NCBI GenBank assembly: GCA_963770895.1
Contig: CAVYRF010000002.1
Coordinates: 4,320,001-4,384,000 of the forward strand
DNA: 64,000 nt
Source: an uncultured Acidobacteriota bacterium
GTDB lineage: Bacteria > Acidobacteriota > Thermoanaerobaculia > Multivoradales > UBA5704
Reading direction: 5' to 3'
Part shown: one piece after another, positions 1 to 52,614 of the stretch
How the letters are laid out: each line of letters opens with the position of its first letter
Numbering within the stretch: position 1 is the first letter of the stretch
The notes under the pieces: model-generated
The model's input: the letters and a program-made list of their open reading frames with translations, nothing else
Told to the model about the DNA's origin: nothing
Databases searched by the model: none
Made by a program: the position numbers and the translations under genes

Positions 1-534
1 ATCAACTTCCTGGTCCGGCCGCAGCCGGGCGTTTCGACGGCGCAGCTGCGGCAGGCCCTGCACCGGCAGATGGTGGGGATCGATCCCGAGGTGCCGGATT
101 ACGACGTCGCCACCATGGACGATCGCCTGGCCCGCCAGACCGACAAGGAGAGGTTCCAGCTCATCCTGATCGACGTCTTCGCCATCCTGGCGCTGCTCCT
201 GGCGGCCATCGGCATCTATGGCGTGATCTCCTACGGCGTGGCGCAGAGAAGGGCCGAGATCGCCGTGCGCATGTCGCTGGGGGCCGACCGCCGCAGCATC
301 GTCGGCATGGTGGTCGGACGCGGCGCCGTGCTGACCGCGGTGGGGCTCGGCCTGGGGCTGCTGGCGGTCTTCGCCTTGAGCCCGCTGCTGGTCAGCCTGC
401 TGTACAAGACCAGCATCGCCGATCCGTGGAGCCTGCTGGGCACCTCGGCCGGCCTGTTCGCCATCACGCTCGTCGCCAACTACATCCCGGCGCGCCGCGC
501 CGCGACCTTGGATCCGATGATGGGTCTGCGCTAG
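1..534 (+). CDS. ABC transporter permease (FtsX/MacB-like, ADOP-type), C-terminal part; runs off the 5' edge
   Basis: Frame is open from base 1. Motifs GIYGVISYGVAQRRAEIAVRMSLGA and YIPARRAATLDPM are typical FtsX-domain permease C-terminal motifs; 4 hydrophobic segments. Confidence 0.9.
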   Translation: MNFLVRPQPGVSTAQLRQALHRQMVGIDPEVPDYDVATMDDRLARQTDKERFQLILIDVFAILALLLAAIGIYGVISYGVAQRRAEIAVRMSLGADRRSIVGMVVGRGAVLTAVGLGLGLLAVFALSPLLVSLLYKTSIADPWSLLGTSAGLFAITLVANYIPARRAATLDPMMGLR

Positions 535-556
535 CGCTGGGACGAAGGCGCAGGCG

Positions 557-36630: not shown

Positions 36631-37727
36631 GCGAGCGCGAGCACGGCCTGACCAGGGAGGTGCCGTTCGACGGCGGCGCCTGGGTGTGCGACGCCGCCCA
36701 GTGGCGGGTCGAGGAGCACCTGGGGCGCCGCAGCCTCTACCTCAAGGGCGGCATCGCCACCGTCGCCGGCGAGAACTTCGTCGACGGCAGGCTGGCGGTG
36801 GACGTGGCGTTCGGCGGCGAGCGCGCATTCATCGGCGCCGTCTGGCGCGTCCAGGACGCCGGCAACTACGAGGAGTTCTACCTGCGTCCGCACCAGTCGG
36901 GGAACCCGGACGCCACCCAGTACACGCCGGTGTTCAACGGCGTCTCGGGTTGGCAGCTCTACCACGGCGAGCGCTACGCGGTGCGCGCCGTCCATCCGCG
37001 CGATGCCTGGGTGCGCCTGGAAGTGGTCTTCGCCGGGGCGCGGGCCGAGATCTACCTGGGCGGCGCCGCCCAGCCGGTCCTGGTCGTCGACGACCTCAAG
37101 CGCGAGGTCGCGCCGGGCGGCGTCGGGGTCAGCGCGCTGGATTTCGCTCCCGCGCACTTCTCGAACTTCTCCTTCGCCGCGGCGCCGGCAGCCCCGCCGG
37201 CCCCGCCGGACGCTCGGGAAGGTCCCGCCGCCGCCGGCTCCGCGCCGGCGCCTGGCACCGCCACCGTCCGCCGGTGGTGGGTCTCCGAGGCATTTCGCGA
37301 AAGCTCGCTGGGCGACACGCTCGAGCTTGCCGAAAGCGACCTGGCGGCGCGCACCTGGCAGCCCCTGGTGGCCGAGCCGGGGGGACTTGCCAACCTCGCC
37401 CGCGTGCAGGGGATCGTGCTGGGCAAGGACACCGTGCTGGCGCGCGCCGTGGTGACCGCGCCGCGCGACGGCGTGTGGCGGCTCGACTTCGGCTTCAGCG
37501 ACCGCGTGCGGCTGTTTCTGAACCGCCGCCTGCTCTATCGCGGCGACGACGGCCAGGGCTCGCGCGACTACAGATTTCTCGGCAGCATCGGCTTTTACGA
37601 TTCTTTGTATCTGCCGCTTGTTTGCGGCCGCAACGAAATCGTGATGGCGGTGTCAGAAGACAACCGCGGCGGCTGGGGCGTGCAGGCCCGGTTTGCCGAT
37701 GCCGCGGCACTTGCGTTGGAAGAGTGA
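36627..37727 (+). CDS. Hypothetical protein (366 aa), probably two beta-sandwich domains (ConA/LamG-like plus a C-terminal carbohydrate-binding-like domain)
   Basis: ATG at 36627 overlaps the NRPS stop (ATGA). Aromatic-rich, non-random sequence (NYEEFYLRPHQSGNPDATQYTPVFNG; FGFSDRVRLFLN). The fold call is tentative. Confidence 0.7.
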   Translation: MSEREHGLTREVPFDGGAWVCDAAQWRVEEHLGRRSLYLKGGIATVAGENFVDGRLAVDVAFGGERAFIGAVWRVQDAGNYEEFYLRPHQSGNPDATQYTPVFNGVSGWQLYHGERYAVRAVHPRDAWVRLEVVFAGARAEIYLGGAAQPVLVVDDLKREVAPGGVGVSALDFAPAHFSNFSFAAAPAAPPAPPDAREGPAAAGSAPAPGTATVRRWWVSEAFRESSLGDTLELAESDLAARTWQPLVAEPGGLANLARVQGIVLGKDTVLARAVVTAPRDGVWRLDFGFSDRVRLFLNRRLLYRGDDGQGSRDYRFLGSIGFYDSLYLPLVCGRNEIVMAVSEDNRGGWGVQARFADAAALALEE

Positions 37728-37751
37728 ACAGACAGGAGAGGAAAAACCGTC

Positions 37752-39137
37752 ATGCTTGAGATCATTCAGGAACCATTGCCGGGCGCGCCAGGGGTGACGG
37801 AGTTGCCGGAGCCTGTTGCCGCAGGGGCGCACGCGGCGGAGGCGCCGGCGCCTCCGGAGCTGTCCCGCAAAGGGGTCATCATCAACTATCCGATGTTCCG
37901 CTTCTGGCACAAGGAGGCGGTGGCGGAAGGCCAGCGGCAGCAGCCGCTCAATGTTTACATCCACATGCCGTACTGTATTCAACGCTGCGCCTATTGTTAC
38001 TTCAAGACCACCACCTTGAAGGAAAACCGCCTGGCCGACATCGATCAGTACGTGCGCTCAGTCTGCGCCGAGATGGCGCTGGGCTCGCGCCACTTCGCTC
38101 TCGGGCAGCGGCCGGTGGAAACGGTCTATTTCGGCGGCGGCACGCCGACGCTGATGTCGGAAGAGAACATCGACCTGCTGTTCGCGGCGTTGCGCGAGAA
38201 CTTCACGCTGGCCGACCCGCAGATCACCTTCGAAGGCGAGCCGGTGACGCTGACCGAGCGCAAGGCGGCGCTGCTGGCGCGGCACAAGGTCAACCGCATC
38301 AGCCTGGGCATCCAGTCGTTCAAGGAGGAGATCGTCTTCCAGACCGGCCGCCGCGACACCGAGGAGCAGACCTTCCGCGCCATCGAGCTGGCCAAGGCGA
38401 CCGGCGCCGAGGTGAACGTCGACCTGATCAGCGGCCTGGCCGGCGAGACGCTCGACACCTGGGCCTATTCGGTGCGGCGGGCGATCGAGGCCGACGTGCA
38501 CAACATCACCATTTACAAGCTGGAGCTTTACGCTAATACACCGTATTACACGGCGGAGAAGCACCAGGAGATCGCGCTGCCCGACGAGACGCGGGAGCTG
38601 GCGTTCATCGAGTACGCCGTCGCCGAGCTCAAGCGTCACAATTATCTCCCCGTCAATACCTTCACCTTCACCAAGGGCGGCGCCCACGACCAGCTCAACA
38701 CGCGCAAGCGCTGGCAGGGGGCCGACAGCTACGCCTGCGGCGTTTCTGCCTACGGTTCGCTGGGCGACTGGCAGTTTCAGAACACCAACGAAATTCCGGC
38801 CTATACCGCGGCGATCGCGCGCAACGAGCTGCCCACCGTCCGCGCCTACCGCAACACCAGCTTCGATCGCATCGTGCGCGAAGCGGTGATGGGGATCAAG
38901 CTGGTGGCGATCGATCACCACCACTTCCGCGACAAGCACGGCCTGGACCTGCTGCAGGTCTGCGCCGCCGACCTGGCGCGGCTGGCGAGCGACGGGTTCC
39001 TGGTCGTCGACGAGCGGGAGATCCGCCTGACCGACCGCGGCATCATCTATGGCGACTACGTGAGCCGGGTTCTGGAAAGCTCGCTCAAAAAGCTCACCGG
39101 CGGCCACGCCGCCAGCCGCACGCGGGTGCATCGCTGA
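37752..39137 (+). CDS. HemN-like (class C) radical SAM protein
   Basis: YIHMPYCIQRCAYCYF (CxxxCxxC), YFGGGTPT, NRISLGIQSF, DLISGL and a HemN-like C-terminus (IRLTDRG); RBS AGGAG upstream. Confidence 0.9.
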   Translation: MLEIIQEPLPGAPGVTELPEPVAAGAHAAEAPAPPELSRKGVIINYPMFRFWHKEAVAEGQRQQPLNVYIHMPYCIQRCAYCYFKTTTLKENRLADIDQYVRSVCAEMALGSRHFALGQRPVETVYFGGGTPTLMSEENIDLLFAALRENFTLADPQITFEGEPVTLTERKAALLARHKVNRISLGIQSFKEEIVFQTGRRDTEEQTFRAIELAKATGAEVNVDLISGLAGETLDTWAYSVRRAIEADVHNITIYKLELYANTPYYTAEKHQEIALPDETRELAFIEYAVAELKRHNYLPVNTFTFTKGGAHDQLNTRKRWQGADSYACGVSAYGSLGDWQFQNTNEIPAYTAAIARNELPTVRAYRNTSFDRIVREAVMGIKLVAIDHHHFRDKHGLDLLQVCAADLARLASDGFLVVDEREIRLTDRGIIYGDYVSRVLESSLKKLTGGHAASRTRVHR

Positions 39138-39183
39138 GCGGCGGGCGGCCAGGTCCACGATCGCGCAATGGAAAGGATTGGCA

Positions 39184-39468
39184 ATGACATCGGATGAAGT
39201 GCTGGAAGGGTTGAAGCGCATCATTGTCGACGACCTGGACGTCGACGTCGAGTACCAGGACCTGTCGCCGGACGTGCCGCTGTTCGAGGGCGGACTGGGC
39301 CTCGATTCGGTGGTGCTGGTCGAGCTCATCAGCTGCATCGAGAAACGTTTCGACGTCATGGTGTCGGACGACCTGCTCACCGTCGAAACGTTCAAGGACC
39401 TGCAGTCGGTGGCGCAGGTGATCGGCACGCTGCTCGCCGCGGTCGAGCTGCCGGCGGGGCGTGGGTGA
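39184..39468 (+). CDS. Free-standing acyl/peptidyl carrier protein 1
   Basis: Small acidic protein with LFEGGLGLDSVVLVEL; ATG follows GAAAGGA. Confidence 0.9.
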   Translation: MTSDEVLEGLKRIIVDDLDVDVEYQDLSPDVPLFEGGLGLDSVVLVELISCIEKRFDVMVSDDLLTVETFKDLQSVAQVIGTLLAAVELPAGRG

Positions 39469-41108
39469 GCGATAGCCGGGCCGTGCCGGCCCCGCCCGCT
39501 CTGACCGCCAAGCCGGCGGCAGCGCCGCGCAAGCCCGACTTCTTCATCGTCGGCGCTCCGCGCTGCGGCACCACCACGCTGTACGCTGCGCTGCGCCAGC
39601 ACCCGCAGATCTTCGCCTCGGTGCACAAGGAGCCGCACTTTTTCGGCAGCGACCTGACGCCGCTGCCGGGCGCCATCCGCGACGAGGCGTCGTATCTCGC
39701 CCTGTTCGCCGGCGCCGGCGACCGCCCTCGCGCCGGCGAGAGCTCGGTGCACTACCTGTCGTCGCGGCGGGCGCCGTTCGAGATCCGGGCCTACGCGCCG
39801 GCGGCGCGCATCCTCATCCTGCTGCGCGAGCCGGTGAGCATGGCGCACTCCCTCTACGCGCTCTTTACCCGCACCGGCAACGAGGAGCTGCCGACCTTCG
39901 AGGCGGCGCTCGCGGTGGAGGAGGAGCGCCGCGCCGGGCGCCGCATCCCGCCGGGCGCCTATTTCCCGGAGGGCCTGCTGTACACCGACGGCGCGCGCTA
40001 CGCGGCGAAGGTCGAGCGCTGGCTGGAGGTGTTCGGCCGCGAGCAGGTGCACTGCATCCTGTTCGACGACCTGGTGCGCGACACCGCGGCGGTCTATCGC
40101 CGGGCGCTGGCGTTCCTCGGCGTCGATGCCGGCTTCACCGCCGAGCTCGAGCCGCGGCGGGCCGCCGAGCTCGCCCGCGTGCAGACGATCCGGCAGCTGC
40201 GCCACCTGCCGCCCGAGGTGCGGCAGCGCATGCAGTTCGACCAGATGAAACTTCACCAGGGGCCGCCCCGCCCGGAGGTCGACCCGGCGCTGGCCGGGCG
40301 GCTGCGCGCGCTGTTCGCCGCCGACGTGGCGCGCCTGGGGCAGCTGCTGGACCGCGACCTCTCGGCGTGGAGCCGCGGCGAGGCGGTGCCGGCGGTGGCG
40401 GCGACTCCGGCGCCGGCCGCCGCGGACAGCAGGGCCGAGATCTTCGCCTGCCTGCGGGCGCTGCGCCAGATCCCGCCCGAGCTGCGCGCGCGGCAGGACC
40501 GGGTGGAGCCGATGGAGCGCAAGTTCGCGCGCTGGCAGCGGCTGCGGCTGCCCGATCTGCCGCTCGAGCAGCGCGCCTGGGATCCGCAGTGGGCCAGCTG
40601 GTTTGCCGGCGAGCAGGAGCGGATCGCCGCGGCGCTCGCGCCGCGCACGGCGCGCATCGAGCACTTCGGCAGCACCGCGGTGCCGGGCCTGGGATCGAAG
40701 AACATCATCGACATCGCGGTGGGCGTCGACGGCGCCGAAGGCGTGGACGGCGAAACCGAGGCGGTCGAAGCGGCGCTCGGGGCGATCGGCTACGTCGCCT
40801 ACGGCAACAGCCCGATCGATCCCCAGACGCGCTGGCTGTGGCGGCTGGAAGGCGACCGCGCCTTCGCTGTCCACCATTGCGATCGCCGCCGCACCTGGCT
40901 GGATGAACAGACCGACCTGCGCGACTACCTGTGCGCCTGCCCGGAGGAGCGCGAACGCTACGCCTCGTTGAAGCGTCGTCTCGCCGCCGAGAGCGGCACA
41001 AAATTTCTGCGCTACAGCGTCGGCAAGATGGCGCTGTCGCTCGAGCTGGTCGCCCGCGCGCTCAGCTGGCGGGAGGCAGGAGGCGGCCGTGCGGTGGGAA
41101 CACGGTGA
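39465..41108 (+). CDS. Sulfotransferase - GrpB-family fusion protein
   Basis: N-terminal PAPS motifs FIVGAPRCGTTTL, KEPHFF and REPVSMAHS; C-terminal IEHFGSTAVPGLGSKNIIDI...LRDYL...YASLKRRLA matches the GrpB pattern. Confidence 0.82.
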   Translation: MSDSRAVPAPPALTAKPAAAPRKPDFFIVGAPRCGTTTLYAALRQHPQIFASVHKEPHFFGSDLTPLPGAIRDEASYLALFAGAGDRPRAGESSVHYLSSRRAPFEIRAYAPAARILILLREPVSMAHSLYALFTRTGNEELPTFEAALAVEEERRAGRRIPPGAYFPEGLLYTDGARYAAKVERWLEVFGREQVHCILFDDLVRDTAAVYRRALAFLGVDAGFTAELEPRRAAELARVQTIRQLRHLPPEVRQRMQFDQMKLHQGPPRPEVDPALAGRLRALFAADVARLGQLLDRDLSAWSRGEAVPAVAATPAPAAADSRAEIFACLRALRQIPPELRARQDRVEPMERKFARWQRLRLPDLPLEQRAWDPQWASWFAGEQERIAAALAPRTARIEHFGSTAVPGLGSKNIIDIAVGVDGAEGVDGETEAVEAALGAIGYVAYGNSPIDPQTRWLWRLEGDRAFAVHHCDRRRTWLDEQTDLRDYLCACPEERERYASLKRRLAAESGTKFLRYSVGKMALSLELVARALSWREAGGGRAVGTR

Positions 41109-41806
41109 AACGAGTTGCCTTGGTGACGGGCGCGAACCGCGGCATCGGGTTCGAGACCTGCCGGCAGCTGGGCGCGGCGGGCTATTCGATCGTGCTCACC
41201 GCGCGCGATGCGGACAAGGGCAACCGGGCTTTGACGGCGCTGCGCCAGCAGGGTGTCGAGGCGCGCTTCCACGTGCTCGACGTGACCGATCCAGCGAGCG
41301 TGGCGCGGGCCGCTGCCTGCGTGAGCGGCGAGCTGGGGCGGCTGGATGCGCTGGTCAACAATGCGGCGATCGCCATCGACAGCAAGGAATCGCTGGCGCG
41401 GGTCGACCTGGAGATCCTGCGGCGGACGCTCGACACCAACCTGGTCGGTGCGCTCAGCTGCTGCCAGGCGTTTCTGCCGCTCATGCTGCAGCAGGGCTAC
41501 GGCCGCATCGTCAACGTGTCGAGCGGGCGGGCCTCGTTCACCAGGCTGGCCGCCGGCGGGCCGTGCTATCGCATTTCGAAGGCCGCGCTCAACGCCCTGA
41601 CGGTGATCCTCGCCGACGAGGTGAAGGAGAGCAACATCCTGGTCAACGCCATGACGACGGGATGGGTGCGCACCCGCATGGGCGGGCTGCTCACGGCGCC
41701 GCGCTCGCTCGCCGAAGGGGCGGACACGGCGGTCTGGCTGGCGATGCTGCCCGACGGCGGGCATCGCGGCAAGTTCTTCCGGGACCGGCAGGAGTTTCCG
41801 TGGTGA
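41105..41806 (+). CDS. Short-chain dehydrogenase/reductase (carbonyl reductase-like)
   Basis: GTG start overlaps the previous stop; VTGANRGIG, NNAAI, VNVSS, YRISK and GWVRTRMGG. Confidence 0.92.
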   Translation: MKRVALVTGANRGIGFETCRQLGAAGYSIVLTARDADKGNRALTALRQQGVEARFHVLDVTDPASVARAAACVSGELGRLDALVNNAAIAIDSKESLARVDLEILRRTLDTNLVGALSCCQAFLPLMLQQGYGRIVNVSSGRASFTRLAAGGPCYRISKAALNALTVILADEVKESNILVNAMTTGWVRTRMGGLLTAPRSLAEGADTAVWLAMLPDGGHRGKFFRDRQEFPW

Positions 41807-41843
41807 TGCGACCAACCGGCCAGCCGCGGCCGCGGACGGTGCG

Positions 41844-43313
41844 ATGAGCTCGCTGCCTGTAGCGACGCTGCCGGCGCACGGCCTGGCCAGCTTCTGGGAC
41901 GAGACGCGCCTGCGCGCCGACGAGGCCAGGTCGGCCACCGTCCGGCCCGCCGCCGAAACGGTGTCCTGGCGCATCGCGCTCGAAGACGTCCTCAAGATCG
42001 GCTATGGGATCCAGACGCAGTCGTGGGTCGTGGCGGGCGCCCGGCGGCGCATCGTGTGGCGCACCGTGCCGTCGGCCGGCGGGCTCTATCCGTTCGAGGT
42101 GATCGCCAATGTCTTCGGCGACGCCGCCTACCTCTGGGACGTGGACGCGGCGCGGTTGGTGCCGCTCGACCGCGAGCCGCTGTCGCGCGCCGACGTCGCG
42201 GCGGCCGGCATCGTCGACGATCCGGGCGCCCCCCTGGCGGCGCTGCTGATCCTGGTCGCCCGTCCCTGGCTGAGCATGGTCAAGTACCGCCGGCGCGGCT
42301 ACACCTACACGCACCTGGACGTGGGCCACGTGACCACCAACCTGGCGCTCTACACGACGGCCCTGGGCTACGCTCCGGCCGTCCACCTGCGCTTCCGCCG
42401 CGTCGCCCTGGCCGAGCGCCTGCAGCTCGCCGGGCTCTGCCGCGAGCCGCTGGCGGTGCTCTCCTTCGCCGGCGACGAAGCGGGCGTGGTCGCGCCGGTC
42501 GGGCCGGAAGCCGCGGCCGGCGCCGAGCGCCGCGGCCTGGCGCCGCCCGACCTGCCCGAGATCCTGGCCTGGGAGTCGCTGGAAGGCATCCGCTCGTTCG
42601 AGGGCGCGCCGGCGCCGCCGGCCGCGGCCGAGAGCACACCGCTGCTGGCGGAGCCGGTGGGGATCGACAACCCGGTCTCCCTGCCGCTGCCCGCCGGCAG
42701 TCCCCTGTCCTGGGCCGCGGCGCAGCTGCGCGCGGCGATCCTGCGCCGCCGTTCGGCCAAGGGCTTCCGCGGCGAATCGCTCAGCCTGACGCAGATCGGG
42801 CGGTTGCTTGCCGCCGTGCGGACCGCCGGACTGGTGACCGACTGTCCCGCCGACGAGGCCGTGCGGCTGGGCGTGCGCCTGGTGGCGACCGACGTCGAGG
42901 GTCTGGCCGGCGTCTTCGCCTACTCGCCGGAGAACCACGCCCTGCATCAGCTCGGCGGTTTGACCCACGATCCCCACACGGCCTGCATGCGGCAGGAGAT
43001 CGCCAGGAAAATGTCGGCCCTGGTGGTCCTCCACGCGCCGCTCTCCCAGCTGCTCGAACGGCGGGGGCACGCGGCCTTCGCCGAGCTGCACTTCCGCGCC
43101 GGCGAGCTCGGCCAGCACCTGCACCTGGCGGCGGCGCGGCTGGGCATCGGCATCACCTGCCTGGGCGGCTTCGACGGGCACCGCTGTGCCGCGCTCGCCT
43201 ACCTCGAGGGCGGCGAAGAGGTGGTCTACGTGCTGCTGCTCGGCGCGGCCGACGAGTCGGCGACCAAGCACGACCGGCTGAGCGTCGCCTTCAGTCACGG
43301 GTATTCGACCTAG
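41844..43313 (+). CDS. SagB/ThcOx-like FMN nitroreductase-family dehydrogenase with two tandem domains
   Basis: RTVPSAGGLYP and KYRRRGYTYTHLDVGH in the first domain; ILRRRSAKGF and AGELGQHLHLAAARLGIGITCLGGF in the second. Confidence 0.8.
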   Translation: MSSLPVATLPAHGLASFWDETRLRADEARSATVRPAAETVSWRIALEDVLKIGYGIQTQSWVVAGARRRIVWRTVPSAGGLYPFEVIANVFGDAAYLWDVDAARLVPLDREPLSRADVAAAGIVDDPGAPLAALLILVARPWLSMVKYRRRGYTYTHLDVGHVTTNLALYTTALGYAPAVHLRFRRVALAERLQLAGLCREPLAVLSFAGDEAGVVAPVGPEAAAGAERRGLAPPDLPEILAWESLEGIRSFEGAPAPPAAAESTPLLAEPVGIDNPVSLPLPAGSPLSWAAAQLRAAILRRRSAKGFRGESLSLTQIGRLLAAVRTAGLVTDCPADEAVRLGVRLVATDVEGLAGVFAYSPENHALHQLGGLTHDPHTACMRQEIARKMSALVVLHAPLSQLLERRGHAAFAELHFRAGELGQHLHLAAARLGIGITCLGGFDGHRCAALAYLEGGEEVVYVLLLGAADESATKHDRLSVAFSHGYST

Positions 43314-43348
43314 TGGCCAGCCCAGATCACTCACATCCGGGCAGCGCC

Positions 43349-44515
43349 ATGGAGAGTGCGCTGCTGGATCACCCGGCTTTCGGGCGGCATTTCACCGCCG
43401 GGCACCGCGAGCTGCGCGCCCGCGCCCGCGGCTACTTCGTGCCCGAGCGGCTGGGCGGCTGGCTGGGCGGGCCGGGCGGCCACCTGGTCAAGGCGCAGTG
43501 GGAAGCCTTCGGCCGGGAAGGCTTCCTGGGCGTGTCGCTGCCGCGCGCCGACGGCGGCCAGGGGCTGGGCCTGCTCGGCGCGCTGATCCTGTCCGAGGCG
43601 ACGGCGGCGCTCGGCGACCTGGGGATCTCCCTGGGGCTGCACTGCCAGAGCGAGATCACCGGCGCCTGGCTGGCGACGGCGCACGACCCGGCGGTGGCCG
43701 GCGCCTACCTTCCCGGCATGATCGCCGGCCGGCTGGTCGGCTGCGCCTGCGACACCGAGCCGGGCGGCGGCATGGAGGCGACGGCGGTGCGCGACGGCGA
43801 CCAGGTGGTGGTGCGCGCGCGCAAGCTGTACGTCATCAACGGCGCCAACGCCGACCTCTGCTTCGTGACCGTGCGGCTCGACGGCGAGATGGCGACGGTG
43901 CTGGTGGAAAAGGATCGTCCCGGCGTGCGGGTCGAAAAGGTTTTCGACAAGCTCGGCACCCGGTCGATCGATTCGGCCATGCTTCACTTCGACGATGTGC
44001 GCGTGCCGGCGGTCAACCTCTCGGGCAAGCGAGGCGTCCGCCAGCTGATGCAGTGGAACAAGGTGATGACGGCGGCGCGGTTCCTGATGTGCGCCGACGC
44101 CTGCCTGCTGCACCAGCAGCTGCTGGGGCGCATGCTGCGCTACGGCAGGCGGCGGAGCGTCGGCGGCCGCCCGCTGGCGGACTGGCCGCTGCAACGCCAC
44201 GCCCTGGCGCGTGCCGCCGCCGACCAGCAGCTGATGCGCGCCGGGCTGATCGACGGCTTCGAGCGGCTGGAGCAGGGGCAGAACGCGGTGGCCCAGGTGG
44301 CCGCTCTCAAGTGGTTCTGCGTCAGCCGCACCGCGGCCTTCGCCGCGCACTGCGCGGAAACGCAAGGCGGCGCCGGGTACATGTGGGACAGCGCCTTCCT
44401 GCGCGCGCAGGCGCAGATCGCCGGCCTCAAGATGGCGGGCGGCAGCCTGACCACCATGGCCGCCATCGCCGGCCAGGCCTTCGCCTACCGCGAGGAGATC
44501 GAGGCGGTGGGATGA
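43349..44515 (+). CDS. Acyl-CoA/acyl-ACP dehydrogenase
   Basis: GFLGVSLPRADGGQG, CDTEPGGG, KLYVINGANAD, KLGTRS, FDDVRVP and QGGAGYM. Confidence 0.88.
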   Translation: MESALLDHPAFGRHFTAGHRELRARARGYFVPERLGGWLGGPGGHLVKAQWEAFGREGFLGVSLPRADGGQGLGLLGALILSEATAALGDLGISLGLHCQSEITGAWLATAHDPAVAGAYLPGMIAGRLVGCACDTEPGGGMEATAVRDGDQVVVRARKLYVINGANADLCFVTVRLDGEMATVLVEKDRPGVRVEKVFDKLGTRSIDSAMLHFDDVRVPAVNLSGKRGVRQLMQWNKVMTAARFLMCADACLLHQQLLGRMLRYGRRRSVGGRPLADWPLQRHALARAAADQQLMRAGLIDGFERLEQGQNAVAQVAALKWFCVSRTAAFAAHCAETQGGAGYMWDSAFLRAQAQIAGLKMAGGSLTTMAAIAGQAFAYREEIEAVG

Positions 44516-46005
44516 GCGAAGCCCCGGCGGCCGCCTCCGCCCCCGTCACCGGCCCGGAACCCGGCGTGCTGAGCGCGGCGATGCGCGGCTGTTGCGTCCT
44601 TCATGCCGCGCGCACCGCGGTGGTGAGCCCGGCGGCGGCGCTCTCCTATGCCGAGCTGGGCGAGCGCATCGAGACGGCGGCAGGCCTGCTGGCGGCGACC
44701 CTGGGCGGTTCGTCGCACCTGGGCTTCTGCCTGGGCAACCGGCCAGAGTACGTCGTCCTCTACTTCGCCGCGCTGCGCGCCGGCCACCTGCCGCTGCTGC
44801 TCGACGCCAACTTCAACTCCGGCGAGATCGAGGCGATCCGCGCCGATTGCGGTCTGGACGCGCTGGTCGTCGAGGCGGACAAGGGGGCGCGGCTCGACGT
44901 CCCTGGCAAAGGCGAGCCGGCGCCGTTCCAAGGCGACGTCGTGCTGCTGCCTTTGGCGAGCGACGCTCCGCCGCGCTTCCGGCGCCGGCCGGCCACCGAG
45001 GTCTGCCGCTTCACCTCCGGCACCACCGGCCGGCCCAAGTGCCTGGAATTCAGCGGCCACGCGGTGGTCGCGGCGGCGCGGCACTGGGTGGCAGGCACCG
45101 GCATGGGCGCCGCGGACCGCACGCTGTGCCTGGCGGCGCTGTCCAACGGCCTGGCCTTCAACACCTCGCTGCTGGCGACCTTCCTGGCCGGCGGCGAGCT
45201 GCACTTCGCGGCCGGCCCGCCCCTGACCCGCACCGTGGCGCGCCGCATCGCCGAATCGCGGATCACCCGGCTGGTCGCCTTCCCCACCCTCTATCGCAAC
45301 TTCGTCGCCGCCGGCGGTCCCGACCCGGCAGCCATGGCCAGCCTGGAGCACGCGATCTCGGCCGGCGCGCCGCTCTGGCCCGACGTCCGCGACGAGTTCC
45401 GCACGCTGTACGGGCTCGACATCTCCGACTACTACGGCATCGCCGAGACCGGCCCCTGCACCTTCGAGCGCGACCCCGGCCACGGCAGCGGCCTGGGCGA
45501 GCCGCTGCCGGGAGCGGAGATCCGCATCGATCCCAGCGGCGAGGTGCTGGTGCGCACCGAGTCGATGACCAGCGGCTATCTGAACCATCCCGGCCTGTTC
45601 GAGAGCCGCCTGGACGCGGACGGGTTCTATCGCTCCGGCGACCGGGGGCGCCTGGTCGATGGGCGGCTCCACCTGGTCGGCCGGACGCAGGACCACATCA
45701 ACGTCGCGGGGCGCAAGATCGATCCCGCCGAAATCGTCGCGCTGGTCTCGACGCTGCCCGGGGTGGCGGACGCCGTCGCCTTCGCCGACGAGGACCTCAA
45801 CAAGGAGACCGTGGTGCACCTGGCGGTGGTCGCCACCGACCCCCAGGTGACCAAGGCCTCCGTGGCCGCGGTCTGCCGGTCGCGCCTCGCACCCTATAAG
45901 ATCCCGGGCCTGATCAGCTTCGTGCAGGAGATCCCGCGCAACGGCATCGGCAAACCGCGGATCGTCGCGCTGCGCGAGCAGCTGCGGGCGCCGGGCGCCG
46001 CCTGA
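44512..46005 (+). CDS. Stand-alone AMP-dependent ligase (class I adenylate-forming)
   Basis: FTSGTTGRPK, SAGAPL, YYGIAETG, YRSGDRG, GRTQDHINVAGRKI, YKIP and GIGK; ATGA overlap. Confidence 0.9.
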   Translation: MSEAPAAASAPVTGPEPGVLSAAMRGCCVLHAARTAVVSPAAALSYAELGERIETAAGLLAATLGGSSHLGFCLGNRPEYVVLYFAALRAGHLPLLLDANFNSGEIEAIRADCGLDALVVEADKGARLDVPGKGEPAPFQGDVVLLPLASDAPPRFRRRPATEVCRFTSGTTGRPKCLEFSGHAVVAAARHWVAGTGMGAADRTLCLAALSNGLAFNTSLLATFLAGGELHFAAGPPLTRTVARRIAESRITRLVAFPTLYRNFVAAGGPDPAAMASLEHAISAGAPLWPDVRDEFRTLYGLDISDYYGIAETGPCTFERDPGHGSGLGEPLPGAEIRIDPSGEVLVRTESMTSGYLNHPGLFESRLDADGFYRSGDRGRLVDGRLHLVGRTQDHINVAGRKIDPAEIVALVSTLPGVADAVAFADEDLNKETVVHLAVVATDPQVTKASVAAVCRSRLAPYKIPGLISFVQEIPRNGIGKPRIVALREQLRAPGAA

Positions 46006-46035
46006 GGCGGCGGCACACCAGGAAAGGACTGCCGG

Positions 46036-46311
46036 ATGAGCGACGAGGACCTCCAGGCCATCAAGCAACGGGTGCAGCGCATCGTCTTTCTGGCCGCGGG
46101 GGGGAAGATCAGCGAAGCGGACCTGGCGAAGTCCGACGCCGACCTGCGCGAGATCGGGCTCGATTCGCTCGGCTATCTCAACCTGCTCGAGGGCCTGGAG
46201 CGGACCTTCGGCGTCAGCATCGACCTGGACCAGGAGGCCAGCCATCACTTCCTGCACACCATCGACAACCTGGTGAGCTACCTGGCGGCGCGACGGGGGC
46301 CGGTGGCGTGA
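46036..46311 (+). CDS. Free-standing carrier protein 2
   Basis: LREIGLDSLGYLNLLEGLERTFGV; RBS GGAAAGGA upstream. Confidence 0.9.
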   Translation: MSDEDLQAIKQRVQRIVFLAAGGKISEADLAKSDADLREIGLDSLGYLNLLEGLERTFGVSIDLDQEASHHFLHTIDNLVSYLAARRGPVA

Positions 46312-47612
46312 CCGGCACGCCGGTGAGCGCGCCCGCCACGCCTGCCGGCAGTGCAGGCGGCGCAGGCAGCGCGGGCGCCGCCGGCGCCGACGCCGGGCTG
46401 GCGGCGGCCGCCAGGGCTCTGGCCGAGGGCTGCGGCACCGGCGCCGCCGACTTGGTAGATTGCGCGTCGCCCCGCGAATGGGTCGAAAGCCTGGCCACCA
46501 CGTTGCCGGCCGTCGCGGCGGCCGCCGTCATCGAGCACCTGTTCGGCGTCCTGCCCCTGGTCGCGGGCTTCTTCGCCCCGGCGCCCTGGTGCGCCGACGT
46601 CGCCGCCGGGCGCAGCCTTGCCGCGCTCGGCCTCTTCACCCCCGATCCCGAGCTGCGCTGGGGCGCCGTCGCCGGCCAGGCCGCGGCCACAGCCGCGGCT
46701 GGCGATCAGGCCGCGGCGGAGCCCGCGGCGGACGGTAGGGCTGCGGGAGAGCCCGCGGTGGGCGGTACGGCTGCGCCGGAGGCCGCGGCGGGCTACCGGC
46801 TGAGCGGCACGGTTCGCTTGGCAGGGTGCCCTGGGGGCGGCGTTCTGGTCCTGGTGCGGAGCGGAGAGGAGCACCGGCTGGCCTGGGTGGACGCCGGCGT
46901 GTCCGGCGTCGAGTGGCACGGCCAGGGACCTTGCCGCGCCGCCATGGCCGGGGCGGCGGTCGGCGCCGACTGCGTTTCGCGGCCGGTGACGGTCACGTCC
47001 GGCGGCGAGCTGTGGACGCACCTGGCGCGCTATGCGAGCCTTTGGGGCCTGGCGGCCTCGATCTGGGCGCGGCACGGTGTCCTCGCCCTGCGCCGGGCTG
47101 CCAGGGCGCCGCGGGCCGGCGAGCCGCGCTGGAGCGCCGCGCAGCTGGTGGCCACCGCTGTCACCGAGGTCGAGATCGAAGCCGAGCTTGCCGCCACGGC
47201 CCTGCGCATCCACTTTGCCACGGCCGCCGGCCAGGCCGCCCGCGGTGCCGGCGCCGATGGCGCCCATGGCTCCGATGGCGCCCATAGCTCCGATGGCGCC
47301 CATGGCCCTGATGGCCCCGATGGCGCCGATGACGCCGACCTTGCCATTGCAGTCGGCGCCGCCCGCGCGCTGGCGGCGGTCGCGGCGTGCACGGTCGAGT
47401 TGCGCGACCGCCTGGGGCTCGCCGTCGAAGGGCCTCTGGCCGACGGCCTGCCGGGGCCGCTCGCCGCTTCCCTGGGCGGGGTGCTGATGCTCGAAAGCGA
47501 GCTCGCCGCGCAGCTCGACCGGCTGGTGGTGGGCGACGTCGCGGCGGTCATGGCGACCGCGGTGACCGCGGTGACCGCGGCGCCGGCGGCGCCGGAGGAT
47601 GCCGGGCGATGA
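46308..47612 (+). CDS. Highly divergent acyl-CoA dehydrogenase-like protein (possibly a non-catalytic partner subunit)
   Basis: YRLSGTVRLA beta-domain-like segment and ACAD-like helical C-terminus (QLVATAVTEVEIEAELA; SLGG); Ala/Gly-rich insertions; GTGA and ATGA overlaps at the two ends. Confidence 0.55.
   Translation: MTGTPVSAPATPAGSAGGAGSAGAAGADAGLAAAARALAEGCGTGAADLVDCASPREWVESLATTLPAVAAAAVIEHLFGVLPLVAGFFAPAPWCADVAAGRSLAALGLFTPDPELRWGAVAGQAAATAAAGDQAAAEPAADGRAAGEPAVGGTAAPEAAAGYRLSGTVRLAGCPGGGVLVLVRSGEEHRLAWVDAGVSGVEWHGQGPCRAAMAGAAVGADCVSRPVTVTSGGELWTHLARYASLWGLAASIWARHGVLALRRAARAPRAGEPRWSAAQLVATAVTEVEIEAELAATALRIHFATAAGQAARGAGADGAHGSDGAHSSDGAHGPDGPDGADDADLAIAVGAARALAAVAACTVELRDRLGLAVEGPLADGLPGPLAASLGGVLMLESELAAQLDRLVVGDVAAVMATAVTAVTAAPAAPEDAGR
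47253..47339 (+). repeat. 9/18-bp tandem repeat encoding (DGAHGS/DGP)n
   Basis: GCCGATGGC GCCCATGGC TCCGATGGC GCCCATAGC TCCGATGGC... Confidence 0.75.
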
Positions 47613-48325
47613 ACATCGCCCTTGTCGGCTACGGCCGGATGGGGCAGGTTGTCGAGGAGGTGGCGGCGACGCAGGGGGTGGGGTGCGTCGCGCACTTCGA
47701 CCGCAGCCGCCCCTTGGCGGCCGACGGCTCCGCCCGCCAGGCTCTGCAGGACGTCGCGGTGCTGATCGACTTTTCCGTGCCGGACGCGGTCGCCGGCACG
47801 GTGCGCGCGGCGGGCGAGCTGGGCATCCCCTTGGTGATCGGCACGACCGGCTGGCACGCCCAGCTGGACGACGTCCGCGCCGCCGTTCTGGCCTCGCGTG
47901 CCGGGGTCGTGCACGGCGCCAACTTTTCGCTCGGCGTCAACGTCTTCTACCGGCTCGCCGAGCAGGCCGCCCGGCTGCTGGCAGGCTTCGACGGCTACGA
48001 CCCGTTCATTCAGGATTGGCACCCGCGCACCAAGCGCGACGCTCCGTCGGGCACGGCGCTGGAAGTCCAGCGGCGGATGGCGCGCCACCTGGGCCAACGG
48101 GAGGTGCCCATCACCTGCACCCGCTCCGGTTACGTCCCTTCGGAGCACAGGGTCGGTTTCGACTCGGAGGCCGACACCCTCGTCATCGAGCACCGGGCGC
48201 GCAACCGGCGAGGCCTGGCCGCCGGAGCGCTGCTCGCCGCGCGGTGGATCGCCGGCCGGTCCGGCTTCTACGACTTCCAGGACGTCATGGCCGACGTCCT
48301 GCCGGGGGACGGCACGCCGGGCTGA
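47609..48325 (+). CDS. dapB: 4-hydroxy-tetrahydrodipicolinate reductase homolog (divergent, inside the cluster)
   Basis: MNIALVGYGRMG, LIDFS, VIGTTG, ANFSLGVN, HPRTKRDAPSGTA and EHRARNRRGLAAGA. Confidence 0.85.
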   Translation: MNIALVGYGRMGQVVEEVAATQGVGCVAHFDRSRPLAADGSARQALQDVAVLIDFSVPDAVAGTVRAAGELGIPLVIGTTGWHAQLDDVRAAVLASRAGVVHGANFSLGVNVFYRLAEQAARLLAGFDGYDPFIQDWHPRTKRDAPSGTALEVQRRMARHLGQREVPITCTRSGYVPSEHRVGFDSEADTLVIEHRARNRRGLAAGALLAARWIAGRSGFYDFQDVMADVLPGDGTPG

Positions 48326-48350
48326 GGCCCACGGCGTCCCTGCGCTCGCC

Positions 48351-48734
48351 ATGCCGCTTGAAACCCTCTGCGCCGGGCTCGACGCCGCAGCGACCCGCAC
48401 GGTGACGCTGGACATGAGCCCGCCGCACGTGCGGGGGATCCTTGCGACCTCGCGGTTGATCGGTCTGTGTGAGGACACCTGTCTGGAGCTGCTCGATCGC
48501 CACCTTTGCGCCGGCGAAACTTCGCTCGGCACCCGCGTCGACTTTCAGCACATCGGCGTCGCCTGGGCCGGCGACGAGATCAGCATCCGCGTCCACCTGA
48601 CGCGCGTCACCCAGAAGCGCCTGCTCACCTTCGCGGTCGAGGTGGAGGCTCCCGGAGGCCTGGTCAGCACCGGCACCCATCAGCGCCTGATCGTCGATCG
48701 CGCGCGCTTCGCCCGCTCCGCCGCCCCCGCTTGA
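48351..48734 (+). CDS. Hotdog-fold thioesterase, FlK (fluoroacetyl-CoA thioesterase) family
   Basis: ILATSRLIGLCEDTC, TSLGTRVDFQH and GTHQRLIVDRARF; Thr-Glu-His triad positions are retained. Confidence 0.8.
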   Translation: MPLETLCAGLDAAATRTVTLDMSPPHVRGILATSRLIGLCEDTCLELLDRHLCAGETSLGTRVDFQHIGVAWAGDEISIRVHLTRVTQKRLLTFAVEVEAPGGLVSTGTHQRLIVDRARFARSAAPA

Positions 48735-48831
48735 CCGGCGCCTGGAGTCGGCGCGCCTGTGGGCCCCGGGGCCGGGGCGCGCGTCGGGCCGGCCGGGCGG
48801 CGGCAATCGCCGCGTGATACGTATACAGCGC

Positions 48832-51255: not shown

Positions 51256-51342
51256 CCTCAGGGTGGGCGGTGTTGGCGCCGCTCTGGCTGGCGCCGCCAA
51301 CACCTCGTGGGTTTGGGTTTGCTGCCGTGGCCGGTGCTTCTG

Positions 51343-52433: not shown

Positions 52434-52526
52434 GACCTTGCTCTCCTGGTAAACCCGGCGTCCGGGTAGGAGCAGTAGGCCACGCGGCGAGAGACCGCCG
52501 CTATCAGATTCTTTAGCGACCTGTCA

Positions 52527-52614
52527 GCTCAGGGTCCCTGCTCAGGCTCCCTGCTCAGGCTCTTTGCTCAGGCTCTTTTGCCCAGGCTCTTTTGCCCAGG
52601 CTCTTGGGCTCAGG
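52527..52614. repeat. Degenerate 13-14-bp direct tandem repeat (GCTCAGGCTCYYT) x6-7
   Basis: gctcagggtccct gctcaggctccct gctcaggctcttt gctcaggctctttt gcccaggctctttt gcccaggctctt. Confidence 0.8.

Follow-up and report, generated by a model that had tools for sequence, protein, structure and literature searches.

Downstream of the two genes of an NRPS-PKS megasynthase, the window (the whole stretch of 64,000 nucleotides analysed here, from an uncultured soil acidobacterium) carries a run of exactly 11 co-directional genes at 37752-48734, delimited by GC3 phase analysis and by Pfam and NCBIfam scans. The initial annotation had described a series of genes with overlapping starts and stops, two discrete carriers and no ketosynthase, and this description was borne out. 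Neighbouring genes overlap by 1-4 nt at six of the ten junctions and are separated by 25-40 nt at the remaining four, lengths that depend on the start codons as chosen in our analysis. Both carriers (g2 and g8) keep the GLDS serine motif on sequence reading, and a Pfam scan found no KS domain in the 11 genes, the upstream megasynthase having one KS-AT module. The enzymes listed in the annotation were also recovered, but a sulfotransferase-GrpB fusion (g3) and an SDR (g4) had been omitted, so that the role of sulfation was overlooked. The unit is larger than noted as well, since gA and a second ligase encoded upstream belong to the set.

521..4315, + strand: NRPS1, an ACP-type carrier (GLDSL) at the N-terminus, then C-A-T (Pfam, motifs)
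4312..36630, + strand: NRPS2, 10772 aa (tiled Pfam scan)
36627..37727, + strand: gA, 366 aa, two lectin/CBM66-like beta-sandwiches, no Pfam match
37752..39137, + strand: g1, HemN-like (class C) radical SAM protein (Pfam Radical_SAM and HemN_C)
39178..39468, + strand: g2, free-standing ACP (GLGLDSV; Pfam PP-binding)
39465..41108, + strand: g3, N-terminal PAPS-type sulfotransferase fused to C-terminal GrpB (UPF0157; Pfam)
41105..41806, + strand: g4, classical SDR (FabG-like)
41844..43313, + strand: g5, two-lobed SagB/ThcOx-type FMN dehydrogenase (nitroreductase)
43313..44515, + strand: g6, ACAD with all three Pfam domains
44512..46005, + strand: g7, stand-alone AMP ligase of the acyl-CoA-synthetase type
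46036..46311, + strand: g8, free-standing ACP (EIGLDSL; Pfam, sequence)
46308..47612, + strand: g9, 434 aa, Ala-rich, no Pfam match, ACAD fold
47609..48325, + strand: g10, DapB paralogue (TIGR00036, 127 bits against a cut-off of 122)
48351..48734, + strand: g11, FlK-family hotdog thioesterase (PF22636, 75 bits)

The NRPS1 stop and the NRPS2 start overlap by 4 nt, and the NRPS2 stop codon overlaps the start codon of gA at 36627. NRPS2 is ordered as (C-A-T)x5, KS-AT-[~540 aa without a Pfam domain]-T, (C-A-T)x3 and a terminal C domain; the tiled Pfam scan found neither a TE nor a Cy domain in it. HHxxxD is present in each of the 10 C domains, and there is no Cy domain among them. The terminal one is full-length, with an intact HHxxxD by motif reading (HHVASDW), and lacks a partner A-T. 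The AT domain carries GYSLG/HAFH, and HAFH is typical of malonyl-CoA.

Conservation and two-block structure

The gene set recurs, with its order shuffled, in 23 Acidobacteriota MAG loci from a collection in which each species is represented by a single genome, a recurrence that points to more than chance. Gene order differs, for example, among the window, G003 and G008. Co-occurrence with the NRPS, proposed earlier, is seen here as contiguity: the cassette stands directly behind the terminal C domain in 17 of the 23 loci, and that domain is 49-73% identical to the window's. SagB orthologues were present in 4 of 40 related genomes, and in 3 of 9 within the same genus. The cassette is real, conserved in relatives and uncharacterised; a full-text literature search matched no characterised pathway with its gene combinations, which agrees with the earlier suggestion of a possibly undescribed route. 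Within a conserved NRPS-PKS cluster belonging to an uncultured lineage of Acidobacteriota (Thermoanaerobaculia/Holophagales), the run makes up the tailoring half.

The genes form two blocks, both present in 14 of 14 loci long enough to show them. Block A consists of gA, g1, g2, the sulfotransferase g3 with GrpB, g11 and the second ligase, while block B consists of g5 to g10, with an aspartokinase-like gene added in relatives. Block B occurs alone in one Thermomicrobiales MAG (L039), with a PPTase and a hydrolase fusion, and no NRPS or PKS gene was found in 14 kb of that 16-kb contig. The two blocks move independently.

Enzymes of the two blocks

Within block A, gA accompanies the radical SAM gene and was present in all 15 genome loci reaching its position; it was not found in the metagenome loci L047, L050 and L071. 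By sequence reading, g1 has the motifs CIQRCAYCYF and GGGTP, and it falls under every NCBIfam equivalog cut-off. A PDB sequence search matched it to HemN (6e-33) and NocN (5e-20), and class C methylation or cyclopropanation by g1, as put forward in the annotation, is plausible. Another HemN_C gene lies elsewhere in the genome. Nosiheptide biosynthesis (NosI/NosJ/NosN/NosK) offers a parallel, in which a ligase activates a heteroaryl acid. The acid is held on a discrete carrier, NosN takes its substrate on the carrier NosJ, and enzymes of class C transfer a C1 unit to an sp2 carbon (PMC10114718). However, nosiheptide is a thiopeptide (RiPP), whereas the cassette has an NRPS-PKS context, and the g1 match to the NocN structure covers the N-terminal half only and is weaker than that to HemN. 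Unlike in nosiheptide, the radical SAM gene also adjoins its own ACP and sulfotransferase.

The PDB matches of g3 are 3rnl (8e-41) and heparan-sulfate 3-OSTs; it keeps GAPRCGTTT, KEPHFF and LLREPVSMAHS, and its PAPS motifs are intact. In many related loci its two halves are separate genes. The CurM/olefin-synthase and sulfate-elimination aziridine-forming systems resemble the cassette in having a PAPS-type sulfotransferase in an assembly-line or carrier context with a thioesterase nearby, and sulfate could act as a leaving group. In contrast to these systems, the cassette sulfotransferase stands free, with GrpB either fused to it or encoded alongside, and the thioesterase is a hotdog FlK enzyme, not an alpha/beta hydrolase. 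In most related loci the g11 counterpart is encoded on the other strand. The second ligase, acyl-CoA-synthetase-like with FHSYG at the Asp235 position, is encoded upstream of the NRPS and of the window in this genome; it was matched in 27 related loci, and in most of these it comes behind the FlK gene. The upstream regions of this genome and of G008 also contain split transketolase genes, a DegT aminotransferase and another sulfotransferase.

In block B, g5 exceeds the TIGR03605 cut-off (103 bits versus 78.4), matches 3eo7 in the PDB and has the invariant motifs PSAGxLYP (the SagB signature), K147-Y148 (the Lys-Tyr pair) and RRSAKGF. In these features it resembles the azoline dehydrogenases (SagB/McbC/ThcOx) known from RiPP pathways. 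The scanned ORFs contained no YcaO cyclodehydratase, precursor peptide or Cy domain, and the neighbours of g5 (ACAD, ligase and ACP) suggest a non-RiPP substrate.

Both ACADs of the initial annotation could be recognised, g6 by Pfam and g9 by fold alone. At the place where MCAD-type enzymes carry the catalytic Glu, g6 reads GLKMAGGS, and sequence reading found no Glu at the IVD-type position. With Gly at the MCAD site and no IVD-type Glu, g6 is possibly no plain alpha,beta-dehydrogenase. For g9, an AF2 model (pLDDT 67.6) gave ChsE4-ChsE5 (4x28_C, E 2e-9) as best Foldseek match, followed by many ACADs and including ColB1 and FkbI, while hhalign of g9 against g6 gave a probability of 3.5%. The predicted g6-g9 complex scored 0.86 against a best control of 0.00, a level that 116 of 157 solved complexes attained, as did 2 of 215 mismatched pairs. 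Contact agreement between runs was at least 88% and partner pLDDT at least 73, with the interface predicted to run through the C-terminal helical domains. From this modelling, g9 is predicted to be the partner subunit of g6, although the score may stem from resemblance to solved ACAD heteromers. The actinobacterial alpha2beta2 steroid ACADs ChsE4-ChsE5 and FadE26-27 likewise pair a canonical with a diverged subunit encoded nearby; however, ChsE4-ChsE5 acts on a steroid-CoA, not on a carrier-bound substrate as proposed for the cassette, and g9 is far more degenerate than the steroid subunits.

In the prolyl-to-pyrrolyl systems (PltF/L/E, RedM/O/W, PigI/G/A and AnaC/D/B), an ACAD-type flavoenzyme oxidises a carrier-tethered N-heterocyclic acyl group, and adjacent ligase, free carrier and ACAD-type genes are shared with the cassette. 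The earlier analogy to these systems nevertheless fails. The ligase g7 has Asn at the Asp235 position of amino-acid adenylation domains, and among solved structures it comes closest to synthetases of oxalyl-, malonyl-, feruloyl- and fatty-acyl-CoA; it is not of the amino-acid type. The PigA/RedW models gave 58-60 bits against cut-offs of 500-650, and the PDB relatives of g6 include AnaB only mid-list (1e-17), along with FkbI (5e-14). The cassette also goes beyond these systems in having a SagB-type enzyme and a further ACAD subunit that is degenerate.

The pyridine or piperideine carboxylate suggested earlier from DapB gained support. The second DapB copy in the genome, g10 is 47% identical to the housekeeping DapB without gaps, and the canonical motif HHxxKxD(A/S)PSGTA is kept in 11 of 12 acidobacterial orthologues, the window's g10 having His-Pro where the others have His-His. 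An aspartokinase-like gene (AA_kinase and ACT; 23 of 23 NCBIfam matches were to aspartate kinases) immediately precedes SagB in 10 of the 23 genome loci and in 12 of 28 loci from metagenomes. Together, this gene and the DapB paralogue tie block B to the aspartate/diaminopimelate pathway. The cassette-type aspartokinase is absent from the window genome, and DapB is absent from 2 of the 15 genome loci reaching its position (L029 and L033) and from L047, where it must be dispensable or provided from elsewhere. A DegT-like aminotransferase takes the slot before SagB in two genome and two metagenome loci, a better fit to an amino-bearing unit.

Kribbellichelins from Kribbella, whose caps derive from pyridine-2,6-dicarboxylate by a krb pathway proposed in silico only, provide a close comparison for this part of the cassette in gene content and in the proposed acyl unit (PMC9962454). 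Next to its NRPS genes the krb cluster encodes FAD enzymes, alpha/beta hydrolases, a free PCP, an AMP-binding protein that stands alone and a homologue of DapB; its Table S3 has no ACAD pair, SagB-type dehydrogenase, radical SAM or sulfotransferase (PMC9962454).

Candidate pathway and alternatives

From these genes we infer a substrate, an order of steps, a point of entry into the product and a pairing of enzymes with carriers, the last on the basis of gene adjacency only. Our preferred but tentative reading (probability about 0.45) is that the two free carriers bear a pyridine-type unit (block B) and a C1-modified, sulfated unit (block A). The cassette would most likely make two carrier-bound products, one a nitrogen-ring acid in oxidised form and the other a further acyl unit that is modified. 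In block B, g7 would load onto g8 a carboxylic acid without a free alpha-amino group, with a cyclic imino-dicarboxylate from the aspartate/diaminopimelate pathway (2,3,4,5-tetrahydrodipicolinate or a close relative) as the likeliest acid; its supply would be raised by the DapB paralogue and, if present, the aspartokinase paralogue. The heteromeric ACAD-like g6/g9 and the SagB-type g5 would each take off two electrons, giving an aromatised or partly oxidised pyridine-type carboxyl-ACP. In block A, g1 would add a SAM-derived C1 to an sp2 carbon of the second carrier-bound unit, which would be O-sulfated with PAPS, the sulfate being retained or acting as a leaving group. The thioesterase g11 may edit or release the carrier, and the units may enter at the N-terminal ACP-C of NRPS1, at the terminal C of NRPS2, which is catalytically intact, or at both. 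Against this reading, reduction by DapB followed by a four-electron re-oxidation is a detour; dipicolinate synthases act by direct oxidation of the DapA product.

The acyl-CoA-synthetase type of both free ligases, in place of amino-acid adenylation domains, would also suit the tailoring of a lipid tail as in ramoplanin, enduracidin or friulimicin, for which the ramoplanin and friulimicin gene sets are the model. The ligase would put a fatty acid on the ACP, the ACAD pair and SDR present in the cassette would fix the unsaturation pattern, and the radical SAM enzyme would methylate or cyclopropanate an enoyl double bond (Jaw5-like). The acyl group would then start the peptide at NRPS1, whose first two domains are indeed an ACP-type carrier and a C. 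Jawsamycin is a known case of class C cyclopropanation of enoyl thioesters (PMC10114718). We regard a lipid tail as unlikely, since the SagB-type dehydrogenase, the DapB paralogue and the aspartokinase-like gene of 10 of 23 loci are left without a role, the best solved relatives of g7 are short-dicarboxylate as much as fatty-acid ligases, and g6 lacks the canonical catalytic Glu.

Somewhat less likely still is a cyclic amino acid whose ring is closed by sulfate elimination, as in azinomycin biosynthesis, which forms an aziridine in this way and includes a transketolase step. Here the SDR would oxidise a hydroxyl to a ketone, the DapB-like enzyme would reduce the cyclic imine that arises, and a remaining hydroxyl, once sulfated, would be displaced with formation of an aziridine, cyclopropane or alkene; the amine so produced would be the acceptor for the terminal C domain. 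That domain, with HHxxxD but no partner A-T, would be suited to the task, and the conserved set does include an SDR, a DapB and a sulfotransferase whose PAPS motifs are intact. The upstream sulfotransferase, DegT and transketolase genes and the DegT-like gene in the pre-SagB slot of four loci point the same way; however, transketolase and DegT genes occur in a minority of loci only. This route also leaves two flavin dehydrogenases superfluous and a ligase without the Asp that binds the alpha-amino group, and no LysW-type amino-group carrier or AziU-like gene was found among the scanned ORFs.

The position of the cassette behind the terminal C domain in 17 of 23 loci, and ColB1 among the fold matches of g9, could instead indicate flavoenzymes working in trans on megasynthase-tethered residues, with the SagB-type enzyme oxidising a heterocycle made on the assembly line. 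Such recruitment is documented in the CaeB1/ColB1 model, where the C-like Ct domain of CaeA2 recruits a flavoprotein that dehydrogenates Cys-S-PCP (PMC8149447). This Ct is about one third shorter and lacks the His, whereas the terminal C domain here is full-length with its His pair, and CaeB1 uses Glu372 as base (PMC8149447), where g6 has Gly. Action in trans is quite improbable given further that all 10 C domains have HHxxxD with no Cy domain, that block B has its own ligase and ACP, and that it occurs in L039 without an NRPS gene in the 14 kb searched.

An unusual PKS extender (hydroxy-, amino- or methoxymalonyl-ACP) made on a free ACP for the KS-AT module, with the ligase, ACAD-type and dehydrogenase steps of the zwittermicin/FK520 pathways, would draw on the ligase, ACP, ACAD and SDR of the cassette, on FkbI among the relatives of g6 and g9 and on the one PKS module, but we give it hardly any weight, because the AT is presumably of the malonyl-CoA type, SagB, DapB and aspartokinase are left without a role, and the L039 block has no PKS gene in the same 14 kb. 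Under our preferred reading of two carrier-bound units, the SDR g4 may alternatively work for the PKS module, which has no KR. Few genes of the set are as well conserved as g4, with 51-84% identity over 19 genome loci (69-84% in 17), and its counterpart is usually the first gene behind the NRPS in related loci.

Gene content and surroundings of the cassette

The run at 37752-48734 contains exactly 11 genes (g1 to g11), all on the + strand, as read from GC phase, start codons and matches to Pfam and NCBIfam. Because the window is about 75% G+C, genes were called by third-position GC phase together with candidate start codons. With the chosen starts, neighbouring genes overlap by 1-4 nt at six of the ten junctions; gaps of 25-40 nt separate them at the other four. 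The initial annotation had described an 11-gene run with frequent start/stop overlaps and two carriers, and this description holds, g2 and g8 both being ACPs. The enzymes that it named are present as well, and its list left out a sulfotransferase-GrpB fusion (g3) and an SDR (g4). It had also counted two ACADs, one of which (g6) is recognised by Pfam; the other (g9) is not detectable as an ACAD by sequence and required a fold search.

Genes of the cassette and its flanks (window positions; strand for the cassette)
521-4315: NRPS1, upstream synthetase gene, ACP-C-A-T
4312-36630: NRPS2, upstream synthetase gene, 10772 aa; by tiled Pfam scan five C-A-T, one KS-AT-T, three C-A-T, terminal C
36627-37727: gA, 366 aa, start overlapping the NRPS2 stop, no Pfam match
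37752-39137, +: g1, Radical_SAM with HemN_C
39178-39468, +: g2, ACP
39465-41108, +: g3, Sulfotransfer_1 (N-terminal) fused to GrpB (C-terminal)
41105-41806, +: g4, classical SDR
41844-43313, +: g5, SagB-type nitroreductase (TIGR03605)
43313-44515, +: g6, ACAD
44512-46005, +: g7, AMP-binding ligase
46036-46311, +: g8, ACP
46308-47612, +: g9, no Pfam match
47609-48325, +: g10, DapB (TIGR00036)
48351-48734, +: g11, FlK hotdog thioesterase
48814-51255: PMT_2 membrane glycosyltransferase, 813 aa
51343-52272: alpha/beta hydrolase
L045 (G000:C2:4300001-4320000, directly before the window) 11067-17891: second ligase (544 aa), DegT, transketolase genes, Sulfotransfer_2

The tiled Pfam scan found no TE in NRPS2, and in the 541 residues from its AT domain up to the carrier (about 6380-6920; window 23449-25071) no KR, DH, ER or MT was recognisable, even at E<=5. 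The AlphaFold model of gA (pLDDT 75.8) consists of two beta-sandwiches matching CBM66 and further lectin-like modules. A promoter and terminator scan of 36000-53000 gave nothing above shuffled expectation. Soil DNA runs contain partial shares of the stretch, and no RNA run is among those listed.

Downstream of the cassette lie the PMT_2 glycosyltransferase, the alpha/beta hydrolase, an AraC regulator, a DUF1570 protein and a MacB/FtsX exporter. We considered the first two as cluster members; tblastn gave no match for either in any related locus, and they were therefore left out. On this comparison of sequences, the cluster probably ends at 48734. The DUF1570/peptidase-MA/TPR protein (53707-55836) adjoins the exporter (55945-58401), which is on the other strand. 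Farther on, at 60761-63814, a gene for a TIR-AAA protein precedes one for a TPR-rich protein with DUF7779; the two resemble a STAND/TIR pair for defence or signalling and seem to have no connection with the cluster.

Read in order, the 20 kb preceding the window encode LanM (other strand), the second free ligase (+), DegT (an aminotransferase), a transketolase split over one N-type and two pyr/C-type genes, Sulfotransfer_2, and a MacB/FtsX exporter, second to the downstream one, whose gene continues into the window (1-534). The second ligase and the Sulfotransfer_2 protein are conserved in related loci. For DegT, and for the single transketolase gene used as query (a C-type one), an orthologue-level match occurs in one related genome alone (G008). 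The LanM protein, a class II lanthipeptide synthetase (DUF4135 + LANC_like, 1096 aa; L045:7702-10992, minus strand), is encoded together with an ABC transporter about 10 kb upstream of the NRPS cluster, probably as part of a separate gene cluster.

Conservation and arrangement in two blocks

Homologues of gA and the related loci come from Acidobacteriota, in MAGs of Thermoanaerobaculia/Holophagales. Orthologues of the SagB-like gene g5 occur in 4 of 40 related genomes, three of them among the 9 of the same genus and one in a different genus of the family; none was found at E<=1e-60 in a phylum-wide sample of 400 further genomes, of which only 2 belong to the window's family. A single SagB protein as query retrieved no relative from genome contigs, and an alignment as query succeeded: in a collection with one genome per species, it turned up one Thermomicrobiales locus (40% identity) besides 23 acidobacterial loci. 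A metagenome scan for g5 returned 28 contigs, all 71-77% identical, close relatives only and no new distant contexts. The genome loci and the metagenome contigs are not independent sets, since some contigs are the same records as MAG contigs.

Conserved co-occurrence, raised as a check in the initial annotation, is borne out by tblastn maps, in which the cassette genes recur together in related loci. The g5-g8 and g1-g2 genes are both present in all 14 genome loci long enough to tell; the other 9 of the 23 stop at a contig edge, one of which (L036) still reaches gA, the sulfotransferase and g1. Directly before the SDR or SagB gene, 17 of the 23 loci carry an NRPS segment 49-73% identical to the end of NRPS2.

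Gene order varies between genomes. It reads gA-g1-g2-g3-g4-g5...g10-g11 in the window and g4-gA-g1-g2-g3-g5...g10 in the related genome G003. In most other loci it is g4-(GrpB)-g5-g6-g7-g8-g9-g10-gA-g1-g2-ST-g11(opposite strand)-second ligase, where ST is the sulfotransferase. The cassette therefore divides into two blocks: block B is g5-g6-g7-g8-g9-g10, and block A is gA-g1-g2-ST with GrpB, g11 and the second ligase. Orthologues of the second ligase were found in 27 loci at 54-71% identity (64-71% over longer alignments), usually after g11; in the window genome its position is shifted to upstream of the NRPS. A single gene encodes sulfotransferase and GrpB in the window and in G003, G008, L023 and L034. 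In many other loci, among them L017, L018, L025-L027, L029, L033, L035 and L036, they have a gene each; the two lie several kb from one another, and that for GrpB stands between the SDR and SagB genes. This fused-or-separate pattern suggests that the two are a functional pair.

At 2464-12035 of the Thermomicrobiales locus (L039, a MAG contig), a SagB-like gene is followed in turn by genes for a DJ-1/alpha-beta-hydrolase fusion, an ACAD with 52% identity to g6, a ligase, an ACP, a class II aldolase, a protein resembling g9 (27% identity), DapB and a PPTase. No NRPS gene lies within the 14 kb examined of this 16-kb contig, and no orthologue of its ACAD was found in 150 other genomes sampled from the same order, suggesting that the mini-cluster was acquired by horizontal transfer. 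Given this block-B-only context and its isolation in the order, block B behaves as a self-contained, mobile unit.

Block B enzymes and a proposed link to the aspartate pathway

The g5 protein scores 103.1 bits against TIGR03605 (cut-off 78.4), and the Atlas groups it with SagB/ThcOx dehydrogenases. It keeps PSAGxLYP, RRSAKGF and a Lys-Tyr pair (K147-Y148, invariant in 3 orthologues), which we take to be the conserved functional motif of SagB-type dehydrogenases. Judged by the partner YcaO cyclodehydratase, a RiPP azoline-oxidase (TOMM/cyanobactin) context was not evident: no YcaO was found among the ORFs scanned in the window and the 20 kb upstream.

For g6, all three ACAD Pfam domains exceed their cut-offs, and mean column identity is 77%. 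Its invariant GLKMAGGS places a Gly at the position of MCAD Glu376 (aligned by eye to the MCAD signature), where MCAD-type enzymes read YEGT with the catalytic Glu. The g9 protein is Ala-rich and carries a low-complexity insert and an invariant LExEL close to its C-terminus. A phmmer search against PDB sequences gave nothing meaningful for g9, and hhalign relates it only weakly to g6 (probability 3.5%). Its model (pLDDT 67.6) has the helix/beta-barrel/helix layout of an ACAD, and Foldseek placed ChsE4-ChsE5 first (4x28_C, E 2e-9), followed by many ACADs. A g6-g9 complex was predicted with a score of 0.86 (best control 0.00; runs agreeing in at least 88% of contacts; partner pLDDT at least 73). 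Of the solved complexes, 116 of 157 reach this mark, as do 2 of 215 mismatched pairs. Solved structures of ACAD heteromers exist, so the score may reflect likeness to them and is no proof of binding. By fold and by the predicted interface between C-terminal helical domains, g6 and g9 would form a heteromeric ACAD of the alpha2beta2 type.

In A domains, Asp235 of the FDxS core binds the alpha-amino group. Where the window's nine NRPS A domains show FDxS, g7 has FNTS, and the nearest solved relatives of g7 are oxalyl-, feruloyl-, fatty-acyl- and malonyl-CoA synthetases. Core and relatives together argue that g7 does not activate an alpha-amino acid. The second ligase reads FHSYG at this position and matches malonyl-CoA synthetase and aryl-acid ligases; with Asp235 missing from both, we rejected the two ligases as amino-acid adenylation domains. 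The likeness to prolyl-carrier dehydrogenases put forward in the initial annotation fails on the same residue and on the scores against PigA/RedW equivalogs (60.3 bits vs 500 and 58.3 bits vs 650).

The DapB-like g10 scores 127 bits against TIGR00036 (cut-off 122) and is 47% identical, ungapped, to the housekeeping DapB of the same genome. Among cassette orthologues, DWHHRxKxD(S/A)PSGTA is kept in 11 of 12 acidobacterial sequences, HHxxKxDAPSGTA being, we assume, the DapB substrate motif. The window copy alone departs from it, reading WHPRTKRDAPSGTA at 48020-48064 with the second His replaced by Pro; His-His is kept in the eleven other orthologues and in the housekeeping copy. The DapB gene is missing from 2 of 15 genome loci that reach its position.

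In many related loci, the 1.2-1.4 kb gene directly before the SagB gene encodes an AA_kinase+ACT protein. All 23 NCBIfam matches of these proteins are to aspartate kinases, with TIGR00657 at 182-199 bits, below its cut-off of 208.7. By tblastn, this slot holds an aspartokinase-like gene in 10 of 23 genome loci (L019-L022, L026, L027, L031 and L035-L037; e.g. L027:8574-9965) and 12 of 28 metagenome loci, and a DegT-like aminotransferase in two genome and two metagenome loci. No cassette-type aspartokinase was found in the window genome, whose own copies are 32-33% identical and lie elsewhere, one of them beside the housekeeping dapB. Since paralogues of aspartokinase and DapB bracket block B, the sequences point to a building block derived from aspartate semialdehyde and tetrahydrodipicolinate. 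Chance placement of a housekeeping dapB or hemN was rejected, since the genome has a further copy of each at another site and those in the cassette keep their place in relatives.

Kribbellichelins carry dipicolinate-derived caps, and their cluster, proposed in silico, comprises an AMP-binding protein and a free PCP beside DapB, FAD enzymes and a PPTase (PMC9962454). Having DapB, the AMP-binding protein and the free carrier in common with block B, it is a partial precedent.

Block A, the proposed route and its alternatives

Class C methylases and cyclopropanases transfer a C1 unit to an sp2 carbon, with SAH and 5'-deoxyadenosine as co-products. By its domains (PF04055 82.7 bits, PF06969 38.9 bits, both above cut-off) g1 belongs to class C radical SAM enzymes; its cluster motif is C75-x3-C79-x2-C82, followed by Tyr-Phe instead of a fourth Cys, and GGGTP is present. 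It was rejected as a heme-metabolism equivalog (ChuW/HutW 201 bits vs 400, HemW 178 vs 205, HemN 172 vs 325), and among solved structures it matches HemN (6e-33) more strongly than NocN (5e-20, over just the N-terminal half). As a further HemN_C gene lies elsewhere in the genome, g1 is an additional copy tied to the cluster. Class C enzymes attach a methylene radical derived from SAM to sp2 carbons, and NosN takes a carrier-bound substrate (PMC10114718).

The sulfotransferase domain of g3 (PF00685, 50.7 bits vs 22) is closest to the bacterial sulfotransferase 3rnl (8e-41) and also resembles heparan-sulfate 3-O-sulfotransferases. It carries GAPRCGTTT, LLREPVSMAHS and KEPHFF, taken here as the PAPS (5'-PSB, 3'-PB) and catalytic motifs in intact form, and is classed on domain and motifs as a PAPS-dependent sulfotransferase. 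We know of no function for GrpB; the sole study found on the subject concerns CoaE folding. The FlK domain of g11 (75.2 bits vs 27) has T33, E41 and H67 with 8- and 26-residue spacing, which we take to match the FlK triad T42/E50/H76.

Beside the observed gene identities, conservation, block structure and non-amino-acid ligases, we infer a substrate, a step order, a carrier assignment and an entry point, and give the resulting two-block route a probability of about 0.45. In block B, g7 would load a DAP-pathway imino-dicarboxylate or a close relative on g8, and two flavin steps (g6/g9 and g5) would oxidise the bound unit toward a pyridine-type acyl-ACP. In block A, a second unit on a carrier would be prepared or modified through sulfation and a C1 addition by the radical SAM enzyme. 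Entry of the units would be at the ACP-C with which NRPS1 begins and/or at the terminal C domain of NRPS2, which is intact, and the SDR g4 may serve the KR-less PKS module instead. Against this route stand its redox roundabout, the dispensability of DapB in some loci, the His-to-Pro change in g10, the apparent lack of a canonical base in g6 and the replacement of aspartokinase by DegT in some loci.

Among the alternatives, tailoring of a fatty-acyl tail is unlikely and survives best. Ring closure to a cyclic amino acid by sulfate elimination ranks somewhat below it. It is improbable that the flavoenzymes act in trans on NRPS-tethered residues in the manner of CaeB1: all ten C domains of the synthetases contain HHxxxD, and the terminal one (HHVASDW) is full length, whereas the Ct domain of CaeA2 is about one third shorter and lacks the catalytic His (PMC8149447). 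Moreover, block B carries its own ligase and carrier and occurs in L039 apart from any NRPS gene in the stretch examined there. An unusual PKS extender unit was considered and rejected as very improbable, the AT domain showing HAFH; the active site of this domain reads GYSLG (not GHSxG). Thiazoline oxidation on the NRPS was ruled out, as no Cy domain is present among the ten C domains.

Within the two-block route, a more specific reading, bold and on balance doubtful, has the SagB-type homologue and the split ACAD, outside RiPPs, aromatise an ACP-tethered DAP-pathway imino acid to a pyridine-dicarboxylate-type unit, and the HemN-like enzyme, with the sulfotransferase-GrpB pair and a lectin-fold helper, couple C1 addition to sulfation on a carrier. 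This sulfation may be a cryptic step that supplies a leaving group. If this reading is true, the cassette has two enzyme-substrate pairings not described before.

Tailoring of a unit on a free carrier beside an NRPS is a well-known strategy. The novelty here lies in which enzymes are combined: a split ACAD and a SagB-type dehydrogenase found outside RiPPs, paralogues of DapB and of aspartokinase, a HemN-like enzyme accompanied by an ACP of its own, a sulfotransferase paired with GrpB, and a protein with a lectin fold. No characterised pathway with these gene combinations was found in the literature searched by full text, outside which most subscription journals lie. SagB-type dehydrogenases are known from RiPPs and degenerate ACAD partner subunits mainly from steroid catabolism; one conserved NRPS-PKS cassette holding both, together with GrpB, gives each a defined, testable context. 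The aspartate/DAP link likewise yields a specific hypothesis about the substrate that reconstitution can address. Gene clusters abound in the host lineage (soil Thermoanaerobaculia/Holophagales), which is uncultured, and we know of no characterised natural product from it. With the cassette present in 23 genome loci and 28 soil metagenome contigs, partly the same records, its product is therefore probably common in soils.
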